Virus record (IMG/VR): IMGVR_UViG_3300029875_000005
Coordinates: 11,208 to 75,207 of that record
Strand: one strand, 5' to 3'
Origin: a virus
DNA length: 64,000 bases
Shown: piece after piece, positions 35,907-58,681 of the stretch
How positions within the stretch are numbered: the first letter of the stretch is position 1
Layout of the letters: the number at the start of each line of letters is the position of its first letter
Position numbers and translations under genes: made by a program
The notes under the pieces: generated by a model
Told to the model about the DNA's origin: nothing
Database searches by the model: none
Seen by the model: the letters and a program-made list of their open reading frames with translations, nothing else

Positions 35907-36809
35907 TTAACTCAAACTAAACTTTTGAGCCTGTGGCTGCTCATCATGTACTTCCTCGGCATTCACGACTTCACCGGTGTCATTACTGATTGTGATAACG
36001 TTCTTTGCCTCGGCAAACTCCTCATCACGCTGAACGATGGCAGAAGGAGCCTCATCAAGGTTCGTAATGTCATTTGATTCGATAGAGAGTTCTCCCCACT
36101 TCGACAGGAGTCTTCTGAGAACAGTCTTGATGGCCATACTTTCGAAGTTGGAATACCATCCTACGCCTTCGCCACTTCCGTTGGCAGCCTGCTTGAGAGC
36201 AATTTCCTTCAGTTTCTCTGCATCAACCTTTTCGCTGAACTTAACGGTAGGACTATACTGCTTTGCATAGCGACATACCTCATCAAGGGTCATATAGAGA
36301 AGTTTGGTAAGACCATCCTTCTTCTTGAAGTAGGCGAAGTAACCGATTGGAGTATTTGAAATCTGAGCACCCGAAAGATCAAGCTTTCCTGTAACCTTGT
36401 CGTAATGGTTGAACTCGCCTTCGTATACGACATCAGCGTTGATTGTCTCGTACTTGCCGGTACGCATAGCCAACTGGAGATAGCCCTTCGTACCGATAAC
36501 GAGCGTAGGAGTCATTACTCCTTTGTTCTTGAACGGAAGGAGATATGCCTGTCCTAGCTGCTTATTGAGAGGCAAGCGAAGGGAGGCTGCTTTCAGAGCC
36601 TCAGCCATCAAATCATTCGGTTTGCACTGGAGCAACTTTTCATCGGATGAAAAGATTTCCATAAGTGAGGTGCAGAAAGCACCTTTATTCTCCTTTAGTG
36701 AACTCTGCAACAGGCTTTGGTAATAACTATTGTTCATTACCGCCTGAAAATTCTTAACTGCTACTGCCTTCTGAGAAGGCTGTGCTTTTGCTACTGCTGT
36801 TTCTGCCAT
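35907..36809 (-). CDS. recT: RecT-family single-strand annealing recombinase
   Basis: LPLNKQLGQAYLLPF...LVIGTKGYLQLAMRTGKYETINADVVYEGE is the RecT core pattern. Confidence 0.85.
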   Translation of the reverse strand: MAETAVAKAQPSQKAVAVKNFQAVMNNSYYQSLLQSSLKENKGAFCTSLMEIFSSDEKLLQCKPNDLMAEALKAASLRLPLNKQLGQAYLLPFKNKGVMTPTLVIGTKGYLQLAMRTGKYETINADVVYEGEFNHYDKVTGKLDLSGAQISNTPIGYFAYFKKKDGLTKLLYMTLDEVCRYAKQYSPTVKFSEKVDAEKLKEIALKQAANGSGEGVGWYSNFESMAIKTVLRRLLSKWGELSIESNDITNLDEAPSAIVQRDEEFAEAKNVITISNDTGEVVNAEEVHDEQPQAQKFSLS

Positions 36810-42993: not shown

Positions 42994-44127
42994 TTACATC
43001 TTTCCTTCGAGGGCATCGAAAGCAGATTGTACGTCCTTATTTAATGTACGTGCGTATCTAGTAGTTTGACGCAAGGTAGTGTGTCCAAGCACCCTTGCCA
43101 CAATGTTGATAGGCATTCCCTTAGACAGGAATAAGGTTGCCGCAGTCGCTCTACCCATGTGGGTATGCAGCCTGTCAACGCCAACCATCTGCCCGATCGC
43201 CTTCAGATAATCATTATACTTCTGATTCGTCATTCTAGGCAGCTTGAAGTCATACTTCTGTAGTATCTCCAGGGCAGGTTTGAGAAGTTGGAATACGAAA
43301 TCCGTATCTGTTTTCGTTCTCTTAGCGTGATAGAACATCTTGCCGCCAATCTCCTCGCAGTTAGTATAATCGAACGATGCAAGGTCAGAGTATGCAAGTC
43401 CGGTATAGCATTGGAAGAGGAACAAATCTCTTGCATGGAGAATATGAGGTGTTGAGAGTTTCAGTTTCTTGATGGCAGCAAACTGCTCTTCGGTGACACA
43501 ATCAACATACTGCTTTTCTCCCTTACCAATATGGAATGGCAGAAACTTATAAGGATTCTGCTCAATAAGTCCGTCTATCATCGCATCATTGATGAACAAC
43601 TTGAGATACTTGTGATAGTCATAGATTGTGCATTGAGCCTTATCCTGTCTGTGGAGATACTCATCCATTGAACGCACCTTCGATACGTTGCAGTCTTGGA
43701 ATGACTTTATCTTCCCCCACGTCTTCAGAAATTTGATAAAGACATCATAGCGTTTCTTGGTATGCTCGCACACCTTACGCTCATTTCGTCTTCTCTCGCA
43801 GTACTCGATGAAAGAAGTTCCTTCGTCTTCTCCGTTCATCTGTGAGATAACCACATTTAAGTCACAACAGCCTTCCTTAACCATCTTACTGATGATTTCG
43901 TTTGCTCTCGCGCGGTATGCCTGTATGATTTCATTCAGTTCATCCGCATCTTTTCTCTTGATAACCATCTTTGACGCATCAGACCATTGTGTAGTTGTCA
44001 CTTTCACGCCTGTGGAAAAGTACTTCCTTTGACGCTTGGCACAAAAGCATAATTCTACCGAAACTTCATGTTTTGAGGTCGCTCGCTTCAAACGATTGTG
44101 AATAATACTTAAATTAATTTTTGCCAT
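42994..44127 (-). CDS. int: Tyrosine recombinase / phage integrase
   Basis: R...CYTGLAYSDL...HTHMGRATAATLFLSKGMPINIVARVLGHTTLRQTTRYA carries the R-H-R-Y catalytic pattern. Start taken at MAKINLSII. Confidence 0.9.
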   Translation of the reverse strand: MAKINLSIIHNRLKRATSKHEVSVELCFCAKRQRKYFSTGVKVTTTQWSDASKMVIKRKDADELNEIIQAYRARANEIISKMVKEGCCDLNVVISQMNGEDEGTSFIEYCERRRNERKVCEHTKKRYDVFIKFLKTWGKIKSFQDCNVSKVRSMDEYLHRQDKAQCTIYDYHKYLKLFINDAMIDGLIEQNPYKFLPFHIGKGEKQYVDCVTEEQFAAIKKLKLSTPHILHARDLFLFQCYTGLAYSDLASFDYTNCEEIGGKMFYHAKRTKTDTDFVFQLLKPALEILQKYDFKLPRMTNQKYNDYLKAIGQMVGVDRLHTHMGRATAATLFLSKGMPINIVARVLGHTTLRQTTRYARTLNKDVQSAFDALEGKM

Positions 44128-44175
44128 TTTGATAACACATTTTTTACAAGGTGATAACACATTGATAACACACCT
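44128..44175. repeat. Three direct GATAACACA repeats abutting the int start
   Basis: ttttGATAACACAttttttacaaggtGATAACACAttGATAACACAcc. A fourth GATAACA lies at 44479. Confidence 0.7.
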
Positions 44176-47161: not shown

Positions 47162-47854
47162 ATGAAAAAGGAAGATAGAATCAAAGTTTGGGAGAAGTAC
47201 GGCCATCATTGCGCATACTGCGGAAAAGAAATAAAGTTCGAAGATATGCAAGTAGACCATTTCGTTCCCAAGAATCGTGGCGGTTACCCTCGTTGGAGTG
47301 ATAAGGAAGGTAAGTATGTCGTTTCTCATGGTGAGGATAGTATGGAGAATTACATGCCTTCTTGCCGCGCCTGTAACTTTAGAAAGCGTGATATGGGTAT
47401 CGAACTATTCCGTGAATCTATAAAGGAACAGGCGAAAGGTCTGCTAACAGGTGCTGCAAAGTTCAAAGTAAGTATGAGTATCGCTTATGGTCTGCTTACT
47501 CCTTCTTTCAACAAGCCTATCGTATTCTATTTTGAGAAATGTATGAATTACAAAGATAGACTTACGAAATATACTCAAGGAAGGCTGTCAGAATTATCAA
47601 ATGTTGACGATTATGAACCAAACAAATTAGCGTTAACTAACCTGTTGTGGTTTCTTGACAAGGTAATCAGTAATGAAGTGATTGTCGCAAAGCTTAAAAT
47701 CATGTCTGATGCAGACAGGAAACGAATGAAATACCTTTCTAGGTATGATGGTAACGAATCGTTATACGATGATGAATATTCCAAGGCAGAAAGTACTATA
47801 GCCAAGGAGTGCTTGAAGTATTTACAGAACAAAAAAGAAGTAGCGTATGACTAG
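47162..47854 (+). CDS. HNH endonuclease
   Basis: HHCAYCGKEI...VDHFVPKNRGG...SCRACNFRK is an HNH zinc-finger nuclease core. The C-terminal ~130 aa are of unknown function. Confidence 0.8.
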   Translation: MKKEDRIKVWEKYGHHCAYCGKEIKFEDMQVDHFVPKNRGGYPRWSDKEGKYVVSHGEDSMENYMPSCRACNFRKRDMGIELFRESIKEQAKGLLTGAAKFKVSMSIAYGLLTPSFNKPIVFYFEKCMNYKDRLTKYTQGRLSELSNVDDYEPNKLALTNLLWFLDKVISNEVIVAKLKIMSDADRKRMKYLSRYDGNESLYDDEYSKAESTIAKECLKYLQNKKEVAYD

Positions 47855-53684: not shown

Positions 53685-53746
53685 GGCGTGGGGAGGGGCG
53701 TTAGCCCCGCGGGGGCGCTGCCCCCTTATCTCCCCACATTCTTACT
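53685..53746. repeat. GC-rich multi-hairpin element, copy 1
   Basis: GGGGAG[GGGC-GTTA-GCCC]..[GGGGGC-GCT-GCCCCC]TTATCTCCCC, then ATTCTTACT. About 80% GC in a roughly 42% GC genome. Confidence 0.75.
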
Positions 53747-54131
53747 TACTCATTTCATACACCCAAAGTCTCCCTTCATGATGCCAAGCGTAATGTTCTG
53801 CTTGCCACCTTTCATTGAATTGAGCGATAATCTTTGGTTCTTCCTCGGGTTCTGAGAATTCCTGTACTACGATATACGTCTTCATGCACTTGCCTTCATC
53901 TTTGAACACTCCAAAGTATTGTTCGAAATCTTTGAACACAAGTATATCAACAAGTTTACCTCTGTACATTACAGGGAATTTCCCGATAAACGGATATTCT
54001 CCCCAATACTCTTTGATGTACTCATCATTGTCTTCATATGTGTTAGGGTAAACCTCGTCTTCGTCTTGTATTACGTAACCTTCATCGGTGTAGCGAAGGT
54101 CACAAATGTAATAGTCTGCTAACTTTGCCAT
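53742..54131 (-). CDS. Hypothetical protein (early leftward unit)
   Basis: 129 aa. Confidence 0.55.
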   Translation of the reverse strand: MAKLADYYICDLRYTDEGYVIQDEDEVYPNTYEDNDEYIKEYWGEYPFIGKFPVMYRGKLVDILVFKDFEQYFGVFKDEGKCMKTYIVVQEFSEPEEEPKIIAQFNERWQAEHYAWHHEGRLWVYEMSK

Positions 54132-54136
54132 AGTCT

Positions 54137-54376
54137 TTAATATTTATAGTCGTACAACTGAGCGATTACGTTATCGTAAAGGTCTCTTGTCTTCTCAACG
54201 CTGCTTTCCTTCCAATGAAATGGATTTTCGTTTGCAGTTCTTCTAAGCGTGTTTGCTATTACCATAGCCTCAGCCTTAGTCAATTCTAATAAACACATCT
54301 TTGTTGTTTCCATTGTCGTTGTTGTTAAAATGTTATACATACAAAGTGCAGGTGTACGTTTGCGCCCAACGTTCAC
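54137..54376 (-). CDS. Hypothetical small protein (first gene of the leftward unit)
   Basis: The start is uncertain, with internal Mets at 54340 and 54313. Confidence 0.45.
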   Translation of the reverse strand: MNVGRKRTPALCMYNILTTTTMETTKMCLLELTKAEAMVIANTLRRTANENPFHWKESSVEKTRDLYDNVIAQLYDYKY

Positions 54377-54668
54377 AAGTTACATGTGACCTAACTCCCT
54401 TCGTTTAACGTCCGTGGGTTGACGTGTTTCGATGTTTCTCTAGTCTAACACGACTAGCGTTTTTACATCTTGCGTGATGAGTGTTTGAGACTTCTTTGTC
54501 TTGTTGCTTTGAGAGTTGCAACTAACTCGGTCGCATTTTCCGTTGATGTTTGAAGAGTTCTATCTCTCTGACTTTCCCGACTAATCTGTACTTTTATAGA
54601 GGTAGTTAAACGTGAAGTTCTAAACGTGCCATCGTTCCTCTAAAATCAAACTAACTTGATTTCGAGTG

Positions 54669-54676
54669 CAAAGATA
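54669..54676 (-). promoter_or_regulatory. Host-type -7 box TATCTTTG (leftward early promoter)
   Basis: The reverse complement of caaagata. A leader of about 290 nt follows before the first ORF. Confidence 0.45.
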
Positions 54677-54773
54677 AAGCATATTCTTTACTTTACCAAA
54701 TATTTGGGCAAGAAAATGCTTTTCTTTAACGTTATTTAAGTAAAGAAACCACTTTACTTTAAATAATAATGTG

Positions 54774-54781
54774 TACCTTTG
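54774..54781 (+). promoter_or_regulatory. Host-type -7 box TACCTTTG (rightward promoter)
   Basis: 30 nt upstream of the ATG at 54811. Confidence 0.5.
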
Positions 54782-54810
54782 TACGCAATAACAGAAAGCA
54801 AATAGTTTAT

Positions 54811-55134
54811 ATGGCATTAAGAATAAAAGAAATCATGGAAAGTAAAGGGTTGACCAACACAACCCTTTCAACGAGAATGGGAGTTACCAAACAAGCGGTA
54901 GGACAAATGGTGAAGGCTGAGTCGTTGACAACTGCAACGCTAGACAAGATAGCTGATGCCTTGGGCGTTCCTACATGGCAGTTGATTGCGTCACCTAAAG
55001 AGGTGGCTACAGATATTGAGGAGAGCAAGGGCGGCTTTTCTTCCTTCATCCGCTACAAGGGCATCCACTACACGGCAGACACGCTCGATGAGTTCTTCAA
55101 GCAAGTTGATGAGTTAAGGATTATAGCGAAATGA
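54811..55134 (+). CDS. XRE-family HTH regulator (second repressor-like gene)
   Basis: MALRIKEIMESKGLTNTTLSTRMGVTKQAVGQMVKAES. Start taken after the promoter. Confidence 0.7.
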   Translation: MALRIKEIMESKGLTNTTLSTRMGVTKQAVGQMVKAESLTTATLDKIADALGVPTWQLIASPKEVATDIEESKGGFSSFIRYKGIHYTADTLDEFFKQVDELRIIAK

Positions 55135-55337
55135 TTATAGTCCAAATTATCATGTGGCTCGCCTTCGGTGCAGTCTCACTTGTTTGTATAGCCTATCTCT
55201 TTAATGTGTTCGGGAAGGTGGAGGAACATAAGAAACCATCCATGAAGTATGCTGAGTGGCTCTTGCAACTGCTCATCGTGGTGTGCTACCTGTATTCGGT
55301 GTACACCTTCGGCAAGTGGCTGCAAGGCTTGTGGTGA
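55131..55337 (+). CDS. Small two-TM membrane protein
   Basis: 68 aa with two hydrophobic helices and an ATGA overlap with the HTH gene. Confidence 0.55.
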   Translation: MIIVQIIMWLAFGAVSLVCIAYLFNVFGKVEEHKKPSMKYAEWLLQLLIVVCYLYSVYTFGKWLQGLW

Positions 55338-55416
55338 GGGCGTCAGCCCCACAGGGCATGGGGAGGGCGCTTGCGCCCGTGGGGGCGCTGCCCCCTTATC
55401 TCCCCCGAGGATTCTT
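55338..55416. repeat. GC-rich multi-hairpin element, copy 2
   Basis: [GGGC-GTCA-GCCC]..GGGGAG[GGCG-CTTG-CGCC]..[GGGGGC-GCT-GCCCCC]TTATCTCCCC, then ATTCTTCACT. It shares about 45 identical positions with copy 1. Confidence 0.75.
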
Positions 55417-55485
55417 CACTCTCACCCATAAGGAGAACACACAAGAGAAGAGAGAGTACAGGGAACCACACAACCAAAGAAAACA

Positions 55486-55527
55486 ATTTCCCCAACTAGG
55501 AAAAAATATTTCTCCAACTAGAAAAAT
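55486..55527. repeat. Two tandem ~21-22-bp iteron-like repeats
   Basis: ATTTCCCCAACTAGGAAAAAAT / ATTTCTCCAACTAGAAAAAT. Confidence 0.65.
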
Positions 55528-55559
55528 AAAATCTCCATTTTTTTATTTGCAAAGAATCT

Positions 55560-55651
55560 GATCATAGCGCTAAAATGATACCACCTGTATCACTCAAATG
55601 ATACCGCTTTGTTAGCGTGGTTACAGGTGGTATCATTTGAGTGATATTATC
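55560..55651. mobile_element. 92-bp MITE with 30-bp imperfect terminal inverted repeats and 8-bp target-site duplication
   Basis: The TIRs GATCATAGCGCTAAAATGATACCACCTGTA and GATAATATCACTCAAATGATACCACCTGTA (reverse complement of the right end) match at 26/30. AAGAATCT occurs at 55552-55559 and 55652-55659. An uninterrupted copy of the target site lies at 55984-56020. Confidence 0.7.
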
Positions 55652-55976
55652 AAGAATCTTCATTTATGAAATAAAAACCGCCTAAATCATCTTCTAAAAG
55701 CCTTAATTCTAGATGAGCGCATTATCTTGCACAAAACCATGAAATCTACGAAAAACCCACAAAATAGGCTCTAATCTGCTTGCAAATGGCTCTTAAACGG
55801 CTCAAAACTCACGAATTTGGGAAAAATCCCGACCAACTGCCCGAAAATCGCAAAAATCTTCAGAAATGGGCGAGTTTAGCGTTGATTGTGGGTGAAAACC
55901 ATTCAAGAAGGTTGAATGCGCCTAGTTAAAGTTTGCTAACGAACTCCTTGCGTGCGTGCGTACCTATTAATGCAAA

Positions 55977-56020
55977 CCCCATTTTTGTTTGCAAAGAATC
56001 TTCTTTTATGAAATAAGAAC
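55977..56020. repeat. 44-bp repeat, intact copy (the other copy is split by the MITE)
   Basis: CCCCATTTTTGTTTGCAAAGAATCTTCTTTTATGAAATAAGAAC compared with CCATTTTTTTATTTGCAAAGAATCT|TCATTTATGAAATAAAAAC at 55535-55559 plus 55660-55678. Confidence 0.7.
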
Positions 56021-56217
56021 TTTCTTTACACCATGGCTTTATCGATCCTATGAGACAATTAAGACTAACTTGCTTATAATTAGCCGCTTGTCTTTTCTTT
56101 ACAATAATCACGTATGTTTACAAAATGGGTCTTCTAGAGGGCGAAATGGGAGAAGGAGAAGGGGTAGATTGCGCCCCGAGAAAGAAATTGGTGAGATTTG
56201 GGGCGATTTTGAACGAG

Positions 56218-56259
56218 GTTGGAACACGGCAAAACGGAACTTCAAATATTATATATTTG
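56218..56259 (+). promoter_or_regulatory. Late-type promoter: GTTGGAACACGGCAAA-N18-TATATTTG
   Basis: Third plus-strand copy with identical spacing. The first ATG downstream is at 56287. Confidence 0.65.
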
Positions 56260-56286
56260 CCCTCGAAACATCAAATAATTGCAATT

Positions 56287-57051
56287 ATGACGGAAATATT
56301 ATCAAAAATCCCAAAGCATTTGACCTCTTGTCCTGTACTCACGGACAAAAAGGAGTGGATATTAGGTGCTGCTGCCTTGGCTGGCGGTGTTGCGTCTTCT
56401 CTCTTTGGCGCTAACAAGGCTAAGAAGGCGGCTAGAAGGGCACAAGCGGAGAACACGTACAGAACGAACGCTGAGAAGGCTTGGTACGACAAGAACTACA
56501 ACACGGACTACCTTGACACGAAAGCGGGTCAGAACCTCATGAGAAGGGCGAAGGAAGTACAGGACGAGTATGTTCGCAAGGCTGATGGTGCTGCTGCCGT
56601 TGGCGGTGGAACTGCTGCAAGCGTGGCGATGGCGAAGGAGGCAGCTAACAAGGCTATGGGCGACACGATAGCCAACGTAGCGGCACAGGACACGGCTCGC
56701 AAGCAACATGTGGAGGATGCTCACCTTCAAAACACTCAGCAGTTGTCTAGAGAGCGTCAGCAAATCGAGCAGCAGAAAGCGCAGAACACTAGCGATGCGG
56801 CTCAAAATGCGTCAAATGCCATGTTCAATTTCGGTGTGAACCAATTGGGGTCAGAACCCGAAGGTGCTAAAGGGGTGAAAACCAACGCTTTAGGCTCAAA
56901 CGGAAAGCCAATTGATAACACAATTGTAACACAACAAGACCGAACCGCTCATTCTGCTGCCGCAGACCACTTGGCTGAGAGCATGATGACTCCCGAGGAG
57001 AAGAACCAATACCGCTTGAAGAAGGCAGTTGGCTTGTCGGGGCTTGGGTAG
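56287..57051 (+). CDS. Internal virion / membrane-interacting protein (candidate)
   Basis: Start MTEILSK is placed after the promoter, and the listed upstream extension spans the promoter. It has one Gly/Ala-rich hydrophobic segment and is Q/A-rich. Confidence 0.55.
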   Translation: MTEILSKIPKHLTSCPVLTDKKEWILGAAALAGGVASSLFGANKAKKAARRAQAENTYRTNAEKAWYDKNYNTDYLDTKAGQNLMRRAKEVQDEYVRKADGAAAVGGGTAASVAMAKEAANKAMGDTIANVAAQDTARKQHVEDAHLQNTQQLSRERQQIEQQKAQNTSDAAQNASNAMFNFGVNQLGSEPEGAKGVKTNALGSNGKPIDNTIVTQQDRTAHSAAADHLAESMMTPEEKNQYRLKKAVGLSGLG

Positions 57052-57272
57052 CAGCTAGGAGGTGGAGCGGATGAGCGACAGGCAAGGTGGACGAGGCACA
57101 ACAGGCGACCCCAAGACCCCCACCCCCTTCGACCACCGTTGCTAATTATAGTAGAATAATACAAATAAAGAAATTCTGCCTCCCCCCACCCCCTTTTTCT
57201 GGATTTCGGTTTTCCGATTTTCCCCACCCCTGAATTTTCTGGAAGTGTTAATAATATTAAATATTATAGATT

Positions 57273-57497
57273 ATGAATAGAACAAAGATTATTCTGTGTG
57301 GTAGAAAAGAATACGAAAGGCATCATAGACCAAAAGGTTTAGCTGTTGCTTACATAAACAGAAAGCCTTTTATAAAGAACCTCCCGAAACTAAAGAAGGG
57401 AACATGGAATATGGCTCATGAAGATGAAGCCGATAACATTCCCTTCACATTTGAGGAATTAGTGCATTTCTCAATAGAAATGTTCAAGAAAAGTTAA
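57273..57497 (+). CDS. Hypothetical small protein
   Basis: 74 aa. Confidence 0.45.
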   Translation: MNRTKIILCGRKEYERHHRPKGLAVAYINRKPFIKNLPKLKKGTWNMAHEDEADNIPFTFEELVHFSIEMFKKS

Positions 57498-57517
57498 ACA
57501 TTAAAACAAAATAGATT

Positions 57518-58681
57518 ATGACATTAGAAGAAGCAAAGAAGATATTGGAGAAAGAGTTTGCAGTGATTAGTCTTCACAAGTCAACAGAGCCATTTGAGTT
57601 TGACGAGAGTGGCTGGATTGAGCATGAGAAGCCTTCTGTGCTTGAAGCTTTCCGTGTTTTATCCAAGGGAGGTTATTATATATCCATTAGCGGCCATGAT
57701 TACGATATGCGCAAGAAACGTTTGCAGAAGGAGTATGAAAAGAACGCCAAGGCTCCCGGTTCTTCTGAGAACCGCATCAAGGAGGATTCAGGTGTAAACC
57801 CTGCCCTTAAAGAATCAGCCTCCCAGTTCAACGATGCTTTGTTGGATGAGCAGGCAAAGAAGATTAAGCGTCTCGGCAAGGAGATTACACGACTCAACAA
57901 GATTATCCACAAGAAGAACGAGGAACTTCGCCTTACAAAGATTCGTGAGAAGAATCTTGCCGAGTTAGGTCTTAAGTATGTTGGGGAGAATGAGAAGTTG
58001 AAGAAGAAGCTTGCAGACAAGGTTGTTGACGAGATTGATGCTCGGGCTTTGAAGAGTGCCGAGAGTGCTCTCGCTTATAAAGAGAATGTGATTGCAGAGA
58101 AGGACGAGGTAATTGCCGACTTGGGCAATGAACTGGCGGCTACCAAGAAGGAGTTGGAGGAGAAGACCAAGCTGGTTGAAGAGGTTCGTAAATACTCTAA
58201 GGAGTATCGTGAATACGGTATTGAAGCTGTAAAGATGATTCGGAAGATGGCAAAGGCTATAGTTAGTGATAAACCAGTATCATTAAAAGACTTCAAAGAA
58301 TATCGCCGCTTAGCGAATGGCTACAGTTTCAACTCTCAGCTGTTTGATTTTAGCGAGGAAGAGAAGAAGAAACTGGATGCGGCAAAATTGAGTAACATAA
58401 CTGCTAAGTGTATGAGAGCTGCAAGAGAATCCATTAATGATGTTTTTGAGTCTTATGCGGCAAAATATGCGAAAAGCACTCTCGATGAATTGAAAGACAA
58501 AGCTTATGAATCCTTTAACGCAAAGGCTCATAAACTCGGACTCGTAGGAAGCAAGGACGGAAAAGGCATCCCAGACCAGATGATTAGGGTTGATATTGCA
58601 GAGGAACTTTCTAAAGTACTTGATGACGCTATAGACCAATTTCTTCTGTTTGGCGAAATTATTATTAAAGAAGAAAAATAA
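57518..58681 (+). CDS. Coiled-coil K/E-rich protein (internal/assembly candidate)
   Basis: 387 aa with long heptad-like K/E-rich stretches. Confidence 0.55.
   Translation: MTLEEAKKILEKEFAVISLHKSTEPFEFDESGWIEHEKPSVLEAFRVLSKGGYYISISGHDYDMRKKRLQKEYEKNAKAPGSSENRIKEDSGVNPALKESASQFNDALLDEQAKKIKRLGKEITRLNKIIHKKNEELRLTKIREKNLAELGLKYVGENEKLKKKLADKVVDEIDARALKSAESALAYKENVIAEKDEVIADLGNELAATKKELEEKTKLVEEVRKYSKEYREYGIEAVKMIRKMAKAIVSDKPVSLKDFKEYRRLANGYSFNSQLFDFSEEEKKKLDAAKLSNITAKCMRAARESINDVFESYAAKYAKSTLDELKDKAYESFNAKAHKLGLVGSKDGKGIPDQMIRVDIAEELSKVLDDAIDQFLLFGEIIIKEEK

Follow-up and report, generated by a model that had tools for sequence, protein, structure and literature searches.

The window analysed here, which is the whole 64,000-nt stretch under study, belongs to a phage genome of 75 kb. 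Portal and terminase matches identify it as a tailed phage, and the encoded integrase shows it to be temperate. The locus of interest lies in a noncoding stretch of about 800 bp, with an HTH operon on one side and genes for 47-aa and 308-aa proteins on the other. These two genes stand at the start of a long operon that runs rightward and closes with a giant polyvalent protein. Two copies of a motif of about 44 bp are present in this region, one of them interrupted by an insert. The genes and motif copies referred to below are as follows.

35907-36809, minus strand: RecT
42994-44160, minus strand: tyrosine integrase (Phage_integrase, Arm-DNA-bind_5 and Phage_int_SAM_5 domains)
54769-55134, plus strand: Cro/CI-type HTH protein
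55535-55678, plus strand: motif of ~44 bp (CCATTTTT..TTTGCAAAGAATCTTCWTTTATGAAATAARAAC), distal copy, interrupted by the insert
55977-56020, plus strand: proximal intact copy of the motif (paralogous empty site), inside a conserved noncoding block of ~90 bp
56125-57051, plus strand: 308-aa gene, which follows the motifs and is the first large gene in the rightward operon

The 308-aa gene served as the query for retrieving relatives, and 89 were compared at the locus: 80 from IMG/VR (genomes of ~75-80 kb), one contig from a Logan assembly (L119; ERR14024425) and eight contigs found through the 47-aa ORF. More than 70 of the 80 related phage contigs, together with the window and L001, an IMG/VR contig considered below, come from a single dataset, IMG/VR 3300045988. 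This dataset must be a pooled genome collection, so counts of independent relatives may be sample-biased. The window contig is a normal 75-kb genome that is colinear with more than 80 relatives, and one contig (L118) was 100% identical to the window over 17.9 kb. The window falls within contig Ga0495776_004056 of JGI 3300045988, which is 75,163 bp long. The closest isolates were Bacteroides phages with a portal identity of 32-35%, and megablast of window positions 54000-58000 against deposited phages gave no match.

A preliminary description of this DNA had reported a 44-bp repeat that was contiguous at 55977-56020 and split at 55535-55678, and inspection of the raw sequence bore this out. The block containing the proximal motif lies about 105-180 bp upstream of the 308-aa gene and was more conserved than its surroundings among 81 unique relatives. 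The proximal motif was present in 85 of the 89 relatives with at most four mismatches in 29 nt. We regard this motif as probably a promoter or operator. A sigma-70 scan of the motif region gave no more sites than shuffled sequence, and inspection of the motif by eye for a Bacteroidota promoter (TTTG / TAnnTTTG) gave no convincing match. The distal motif was absent from 80 of the 89 relatives, most of which read ...ctagaaaaat joined directly to aaaaaccgcc... at this position. It was found only in the window, L119, L167, L176, L205 and L207 (6 of 90 genomes), as an indel of ~45 bp, and this distribution shows it to be a dispensable, lineage-specific copy. The two motif copies have 100% identity in L167 and L176, suggesting that a small regulatory module was duplicated, or underwent gene conversion, not long ago.

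Several other elements were observed in and around the noncoding stretch. A GC-rich hairpin at 55335-55405 (RNA ΔG of -40.7 kcal/mol, in a genome of 42.6% GC) directly follows a 68-aa ORF. A partial copy is found at 53706-53735, and relatives carry a second copy of ~50 bp, with 88-98% identity, about 1.5-2.5 kb upstream; this hairpin could be a terminator or some other small repeated element. Just upstream of the distal motif, positions 55488-55530 hold two direct repeats of 18-19 bp, TTTCCCCAACTAGGAAAAA and TTTCTCCAACTAGAAAAA, that are 22 bp apart and could be protein-binding sites; L131 has only one of them. Between a leftward small-gene operon and the rightward Cro/CI-type HTH gene there is an AT-rich cluster of overlapping palindromes and repeats (54640-54850; TAAAG..CTTTAC) that resembles a lysogeny-switch operator region. 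The 47-aa ORF (55786-55929), which lies between the motif copies, is probably a real and strongly conserved small gene: the identical protein was encoded on 19 contigs from many samples and with differing neighbours. The giant gene, in the window at 60.1-64 kb and 25-2349 (L118:14000 onward), specifies a product of 5,777 aa with ddrB-ParB, AAA_34, Helicase_C_4 and LPD38 ('large polyvalent protein') domains and accounts for about a quarter of the 75-kb phage genome.

A 94-bp insert in the distal motif

The insert in the distal motif is bounded by two copies of a short target sequence.

55553-55558, no strand: target-site duplication AGAATC, left copy
55559-55652, plus strand: 94-bp IS21-family deletion derivative with TG...CA termini, whose ends match the parent IS; site empty in L119
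55653-55658, no strand: target-site duplication AGAATC, right copy

As first described, the ends of the insert are inverted repeats; the arms are 31 nt long (55559-55589 and 55622-55652) and 87% complementary. An 18-nt alternative arm inside the insert (55588-55605) is a perfect complement of 55629-55646, and AAGAATCT is present both to the left and to the right of the insert. The arm 17-mer occurred at only two places in the window, with 0.15 matches expected by chance, and as single-stranded DNA the insert is predicted to fold into a long hairpin with a ΔG of -23.3 kcal/mol (z = -7.6). None of these features is due to chance. An Rfam scan of the insert assigned it to no family, the sole match (28.5 bits vs a gathering score of 100) being a chance one. 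The insert had also been placed in a putative origin or regulatory region; its location is intergenic and regulatory-looking, and nothing in our analysis pointed to a replication origin.

The preliminary description gave the insert as 92 bp (55560-55651) between 8-bp target duplications. The insert is real, but comparison with the IS copies described in the following section changed both values. The base preceding GATCA was T in 58 of 58 left ends, and the base following TTATC was A at 85 of 89 sites, the other four being internal subterminal copies. Since T and A stand at the outer ends of the IS copies, the element has TG...CA termini and a length of 94 bp, which leaves 6 bp for the duplication. 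Perfect 6-bp duplications flanked four independent full-length copies (ACTTCT, CCTTGA, GGAAGC and ATTAGA), and a 6-bp duplication was seen in five independent insertions (L039, L052, L087, L109 and the window). We also found an NNTANN target bias at equal offsets in the two flanks, -6 to -1 on the left and +1 to +6 on the right. In L006-L117, 38 of the 48 left flanks had T at duplication position 3 and 29 had A at position 4; among the 68 right flanks the corresponding numbers were 42 and 43. A bias at equal offsets on both sides fits a 6-bp register only. The terminal T and A of the IS copies and the NNTANN register thus rule out an 8-bp duplication; the repeat appears to be 8 bp long because the bases neighbouring the target equal the element's own terminal T and A. 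The window target, AGAATC, is atypical for this IS at position 3.

The site is empty in two contexts. The proximal motif is a paralogous empty site, as had been recognized, and L119 provides an orthologous one. L119 encodes an identical 308-aa neighbour protein and is 99.87% identical to the window over 1.5 kb downstream, and its site (...TTTGCAAAGAATCTTCATTTATG...) has AGAATC once only and is shorter by exactly 100 bp (94 + 6). The comparison of related phages that had been proposed as a check therefore gave a clear result: IS sequence was present near the site in 0 of the 89 relatives, and at its orthologous position the L119 site is precisely empty. A small ORF takes its TGA stop codon from the element itself, and an exact-match look-up of this ORF returned the source contig only. 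This is a genuine insertion, known so far from one genome alone, and a very recent one, since both the paralog and a near-identical strain have an empty site.

The parent IS21-family element

Searching for further copies of the insert, as had been suggested, led to a parent IS with more than 100 copies. The additional suggestion that the parent be sought among families with 8-bp duplications would have misdirected the search, the parent being an IS21-family element with a 6-bp duplication. When IMG/VR was scanned with the arm 17-mer, one of five matches was genuine (L001); the other four (L002-L005) were chance matches. A 20-mer scan identified 108 loci in metagenome contigs, nearly all from human gut, and a further 4 in GTDB genomes, where two uncultured Prevotella MAGs accounted for every one. 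Most of the 20-mer loci sit 52-54 nt from a contig end, as is typical of a repeat at which short-read assembly breaks off. Several loci hold two inverted ends 2,794 bp apart. Measured between GATCA and TTATC the parent IS is 2,794 bp long, and its outermost T and A bring this to 2,796 bp, for example at L052:1149-3944. It was present at about 50-70 distinct sites in human-gut metagenomes and Prevotella MAGs, with 48 distinct left and 68 distinct right flanks, and full-length copies on different contigs were 99.2-99.9% identical to one another. These near-identical copies and many distinct flanks indicate that the IS is abundant and recently active. A phage collection searched with the IS gave a 184-bp partial match alone (MT836390), and PLSDB plasmids gave no match.

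IS21, IS5376 and IS408 are members of the IS21 family, in which target duplications range from 4 to 8 bp. The parent carries istA (DDE transposase) and istB (AAA+ helper ATPase) as consecutive genes. The predicted 534-aa IstA contains rve and Mu-transpos_C_2 domains above the Pfam cut-offs, and its best NCBIfam match was transpos_IS21 at 146.9 bits, under the equivalog cut-off of 160. The predicted 243-aa IstB matched IstB_IS21 (PF01695) at 189.7 bits and NF038214 at 225.8 bits (cut-off 200). The best PDB matches were IS5376 IstA (8B4H and 8Q4D) and IS5376 IstB (8Q3W). The termini of the parent are 5'-TG...CA-3' (TGATCA...TTATCA), its terminal inverted repeats (TIRs) are built of two or more direct repeats ~23 bp apart, and its target duplication has a short, fixed length of 6 bp. 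The core motif CTCAAATGATACC occurs twice at the left end (L1 and L2, with starts 23 bp apart) and six times in inverted orientation at the right end, where R1 to R4 are separated by steps of 23, 24 and 23 bp and R5 and R6 lie further in. One copy (L022:6269-6360) has a left end with three direct repeats rather than two, owing to an extra 23-bp unit, and repeat number thus varies within the IS.

In overall design the parent resembles the IS21 family: an IstA with HTH, DDE/rve and Mu-transposase C-terminal beta-barrel domains, an AAA+ IstB of the IstB_IS21 type, TG...CA termini, TIR repeats spaced by 23 bp as in other family members (PMC10122671), a short fixed duplication and a length of about 2.8 kb. 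It differs in being a divergent, Bacteroidota-type member, with an IstA that falls below the transpos_IS21 cut-off and matches IS5376 IstA at E = 3e-13, and in having six right-end repeats rather than two. Its 6-bp duplication with NNTANN bias also sets it apart from IS5376, in which the duplication is 5 bp (PMC10122671). Judged by these sequence features, the parent is an IS21-family insertion sequence with istA and istB. It is apparently an unnamed and very active Bacteroidota member of the family, characterized by a 6-bp duplication, an NNTANN target and six right-end repeats. The insert in the window is almost certainly an IS21-family-derived insertion.

Structure, copy number and mobility of the insert

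The parent left end corresponds to positions 1-69 and the right end to positions 63-92 of the insert in the original 92-bp numbering, both with 100% identity. In full, the insert consists of parent bases 1-70 followed by the last 31 bases, with a 7-bp overlap, TACAGGT; compared with the L052 copy of the IS, neither retained end shows a mismatch (100% identity). The elements of the insert are listed below; the 25-mer across the junction in the window insert reads ...GCGTGGTTACAGGTGGTATCATTTG....

55559-55589, plus strand: L1, left terminal repeat and presumed IstA binding site, with core CTAAAATGATACC at 55570-55582; pairs with R1
55586-55610, plus strand: L2, left subterminal repeat, with core CTCAAATGATACC at 55593-55605; 23 bp from L1
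55622-55628, plus strand: TACAGGT, the microhomology at which a 2,702-bp internal deletion was joined (prefix of 70 nt and suffix of 31 nt identical to the parent)
55622-55652, minus strand: R1, right terminal repeat and the only right-end repeat kept; R2 to R6 of the parent are deleted

This arrangement accounts for the internal extra TIR copy that had been read as permitting two mutually exclusive hairpins. The complementarity exists, but an alternative-hairpin switch is ruled out, as the arms are the L1 and L2 subterminal repeats, 23 bp apart.

Of the sites in cis that transposition would use, the insert kept L1, L2 and R1 and lost R2. In vitro integration by IS5376 IstA requires two complete repeats at each end, plus IstB (PMC10122671). 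With R2 lost, the remnant is probably no longer mobilisable if the same need applies, and we consider it most likely immobile; the two-repeat rule comes from in vitro work on IS5376, to which the IstA here is distantly related, and the rule may not hold for it.

The preliminary description called the insert a MITE. Like bacterial MITEs, the 94-bp element is small and noncoding, lacks a transposase, has TIRs that match those of an autonomous IS, is flanked by a target duplication at a site with a documented empty counterpart, and is capable of forming a hairpin. In these respects the description stands: the insert is non-autonomous, transposon-derived and recent. It is unlike bacterial MITEs in being single-copy as far as seen, in missing one repeat expected to be needed for mobilisation, and in showing no sign of ever having moved as a unit. 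Among 73 right ends, 66 run into R2, four represent one locus with a 51-bp R1-R1 palindrome and two are too short; the deletion junction was found in the window alone. Among the 34 informative left ends, 33 run on into the interior of the IS, the window being the sole exception. No second copy of the 94-bp junction was found in IMG/VR or among the ~100 informative ends, and copies at several different loci, as expected of a MITE, were thus not seen, with 21 of 55 left ends uninformative because assemblies break at the repeat. Short-read assembly may also under-represent small multicopy derivatives, and these two factors make uniqueness less certain than the counts suggest.

Other short derivatives of the IS do occur, namely one of 279 bp in L106 and others of ~1.05 kb in L023 and L037. 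A 51-bp near-palindrome of two right ends (R1-R1), at one locus in four samples (L033, L040, L051 and L076), recalls the two-right-end integration products of IS5376 in vitro. No target duplications were found at the 279-bp, ~1.05-kb or 51-bp derivatives, and there is thus no sign that any short form transposed. Taken as it stands in the available sequences, the 94-bp element is better described as a single-copy decayed IS remnant than as a MITE.

Proposed history of the insert

We propose that a full-length IS entered the phage and then decayed in place to an immobile remnant, and we hold this chain of events as a whole to be reasonably likely. In this model, a 2.8-kb IS21-family element encoding the IstA DDE transposase and the IstB AAA+ helper would have been resident in a Prevotella host. 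It would have transposed into the temperate ~75-kb phage, probably as a prophage or during replication in an IS-bearing cell; a prophage stage in such a Prevotella cell offers an obvious entry route. Staggered strand transfer by IstA/IstB would have duplicated the 6-bp target AGAATC. Illegitimate deletion between the 7-bp direct repeats TACAGGT would then have removed the central 2,702 bp, leaving the 94-bp remnant with L1 and L2 on the left and only R1 on the right. We infer this order, insertion before deletion; a full-length IS occupying this site was seen on no contig. The remnant would be a molecular scar, able to fold as a hairpin or cruciform, rather than an active MITE. It may have persisted because it landed in the redundant second copy of the motif and left the conserved proximal copy intact. 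Insertion into a dispensable duplicate that is missing from most relatives would plausibly be tolerated, and on this basis the insertion was probably neutral.

Alternatively, the 94-bp derivative could be a genuine MITE that originated on a Prevotella chromosome and only later moved into the phage, with a full-length copy supplying IstA/IstB in trans. The perfect TIRs, the clean 6-bp duplication and the 100% identity of the ends to active IS copies would all be expected of such an element, the IS family does yield other short derivatives, and assemblies possibly under-report small repeats. However, no second junction was found among 73 right and 34 informative left ends or in IMG/VR, the other short derivatives lack target duplications, and R1 stands alone at the right end where IS5376 IstA needs two repeats. 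The single-copy junction, the lack of transposed short forms and the missing R2 together favour decay in place over a pre-formed MITE, and we consider prior formation in the chromosome unlikely, though it deserves to be weighed. A more elaborate version holds that the 94-bp element is an active minimal IS21-type MITE, for which L1, L2 and R1 suffice, that is ferried together with full IS copies (L001, L048 and L053) between Prevotella strains by this phage family, and/or that its hairpin rewires the timing of the giant-polyvalent-protein operon. We regard this as speculative and distinctly improbable.

The 94-bp form might instead be chimeric, produced by assembly or amplification from a phage that carries either the full IS or no insert. 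The IS breaks most short-read assemblies, the majority of loci ending ~52-54 nt inside it, and hairpins can promote template switching during amplification. Against this, the join consists of only 7 bp of identity, far under any assembler k-mer, and reads must therefore span it; the correct 6-bp duplication is present at a site that is empty in a sister strain; and the contig is of normal size and colinear with its relatives. An artefact is accordingly very hard to sustain. A native phage regulatory hairpin (terminator, operator or origin structure) might be suspected from the strong predicted fold and the intergenic, regulatory-looking location, but the sequence is missing from all 89 relatives, is identical to bacterial IS ends, is flanked by a target duplication and belongs to no Rfam family, and the empty orthologous site and identified parent IS refute this reading, to which we give practically no weight. 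The preliminary description had allowed for such a local hairpin had no other copies existed and had all relatives carried the insert; what we found was the reverse on both counts.

Three other contigs carry the IS in or next to phage or phage-like sequence. In L001:1-321 (IMGVR_UViG_3300045988_087078; 88,660 bp) the IS interrupts, at approximately codon 41, a homolog of the HNH endonuclease gene at 47162-47854 of the window (61% aa identity). The breakpoint is just after the catalytic DH region, and the IS is cut off by the end of the contig. Here a different phage was hit independently, and a gene was disrupted. L048 and L053 are human-gut contigs that end in the IS and whose flanks resemble window positions 29.4-33 kb (up to 96% nt identity, and 64% aa identity for one ORF), which suggests further independent insertions at other positions in relatives of the window phage.

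Insertion sequences do occur in phages, temperate ones especially, and IS-derived deletion remnants and MITEs are a known category. The preliminary description had called MITEs uncommon in phage genomes. ISs are indeed uncommon there, with 92% of surveyed phage genomes carrying none (Leclercq, Gilbert & Cordaux, PMC3429520); the window phage is temperate, and an IS insertion is thus less surprising than in a strictly lytic phage. As in the phage insertions of that survey, a host IS at a non-essential intergenic site fits strong purifying selection (PMC3429520), whereas the window differs in keeping only a 94-bp remnant.

The case invokes no new mechanism and the insertion is of an ordinary, known sort, involving an apparently new Bacteroidota IS21-family member and its single-copy decayed derivative. 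It documents a natural instance in which a host IS would have entered a gut phage and been reduced by microhomology deletion to a minimal scar at a tolerated type of site, with all three states available for comparison: the empty ortholog, the empty paralog and the filled site. The parent IS also fragments gut metagenome assemblies. Finally, phage and Prevotella contigs share IS ends with 100% identity. This match points to Prevotella as the host and would provide an independent host assignment for an uncultured family of ~75-kb temperate phages represented by more than 100 IMG/VR contigs.
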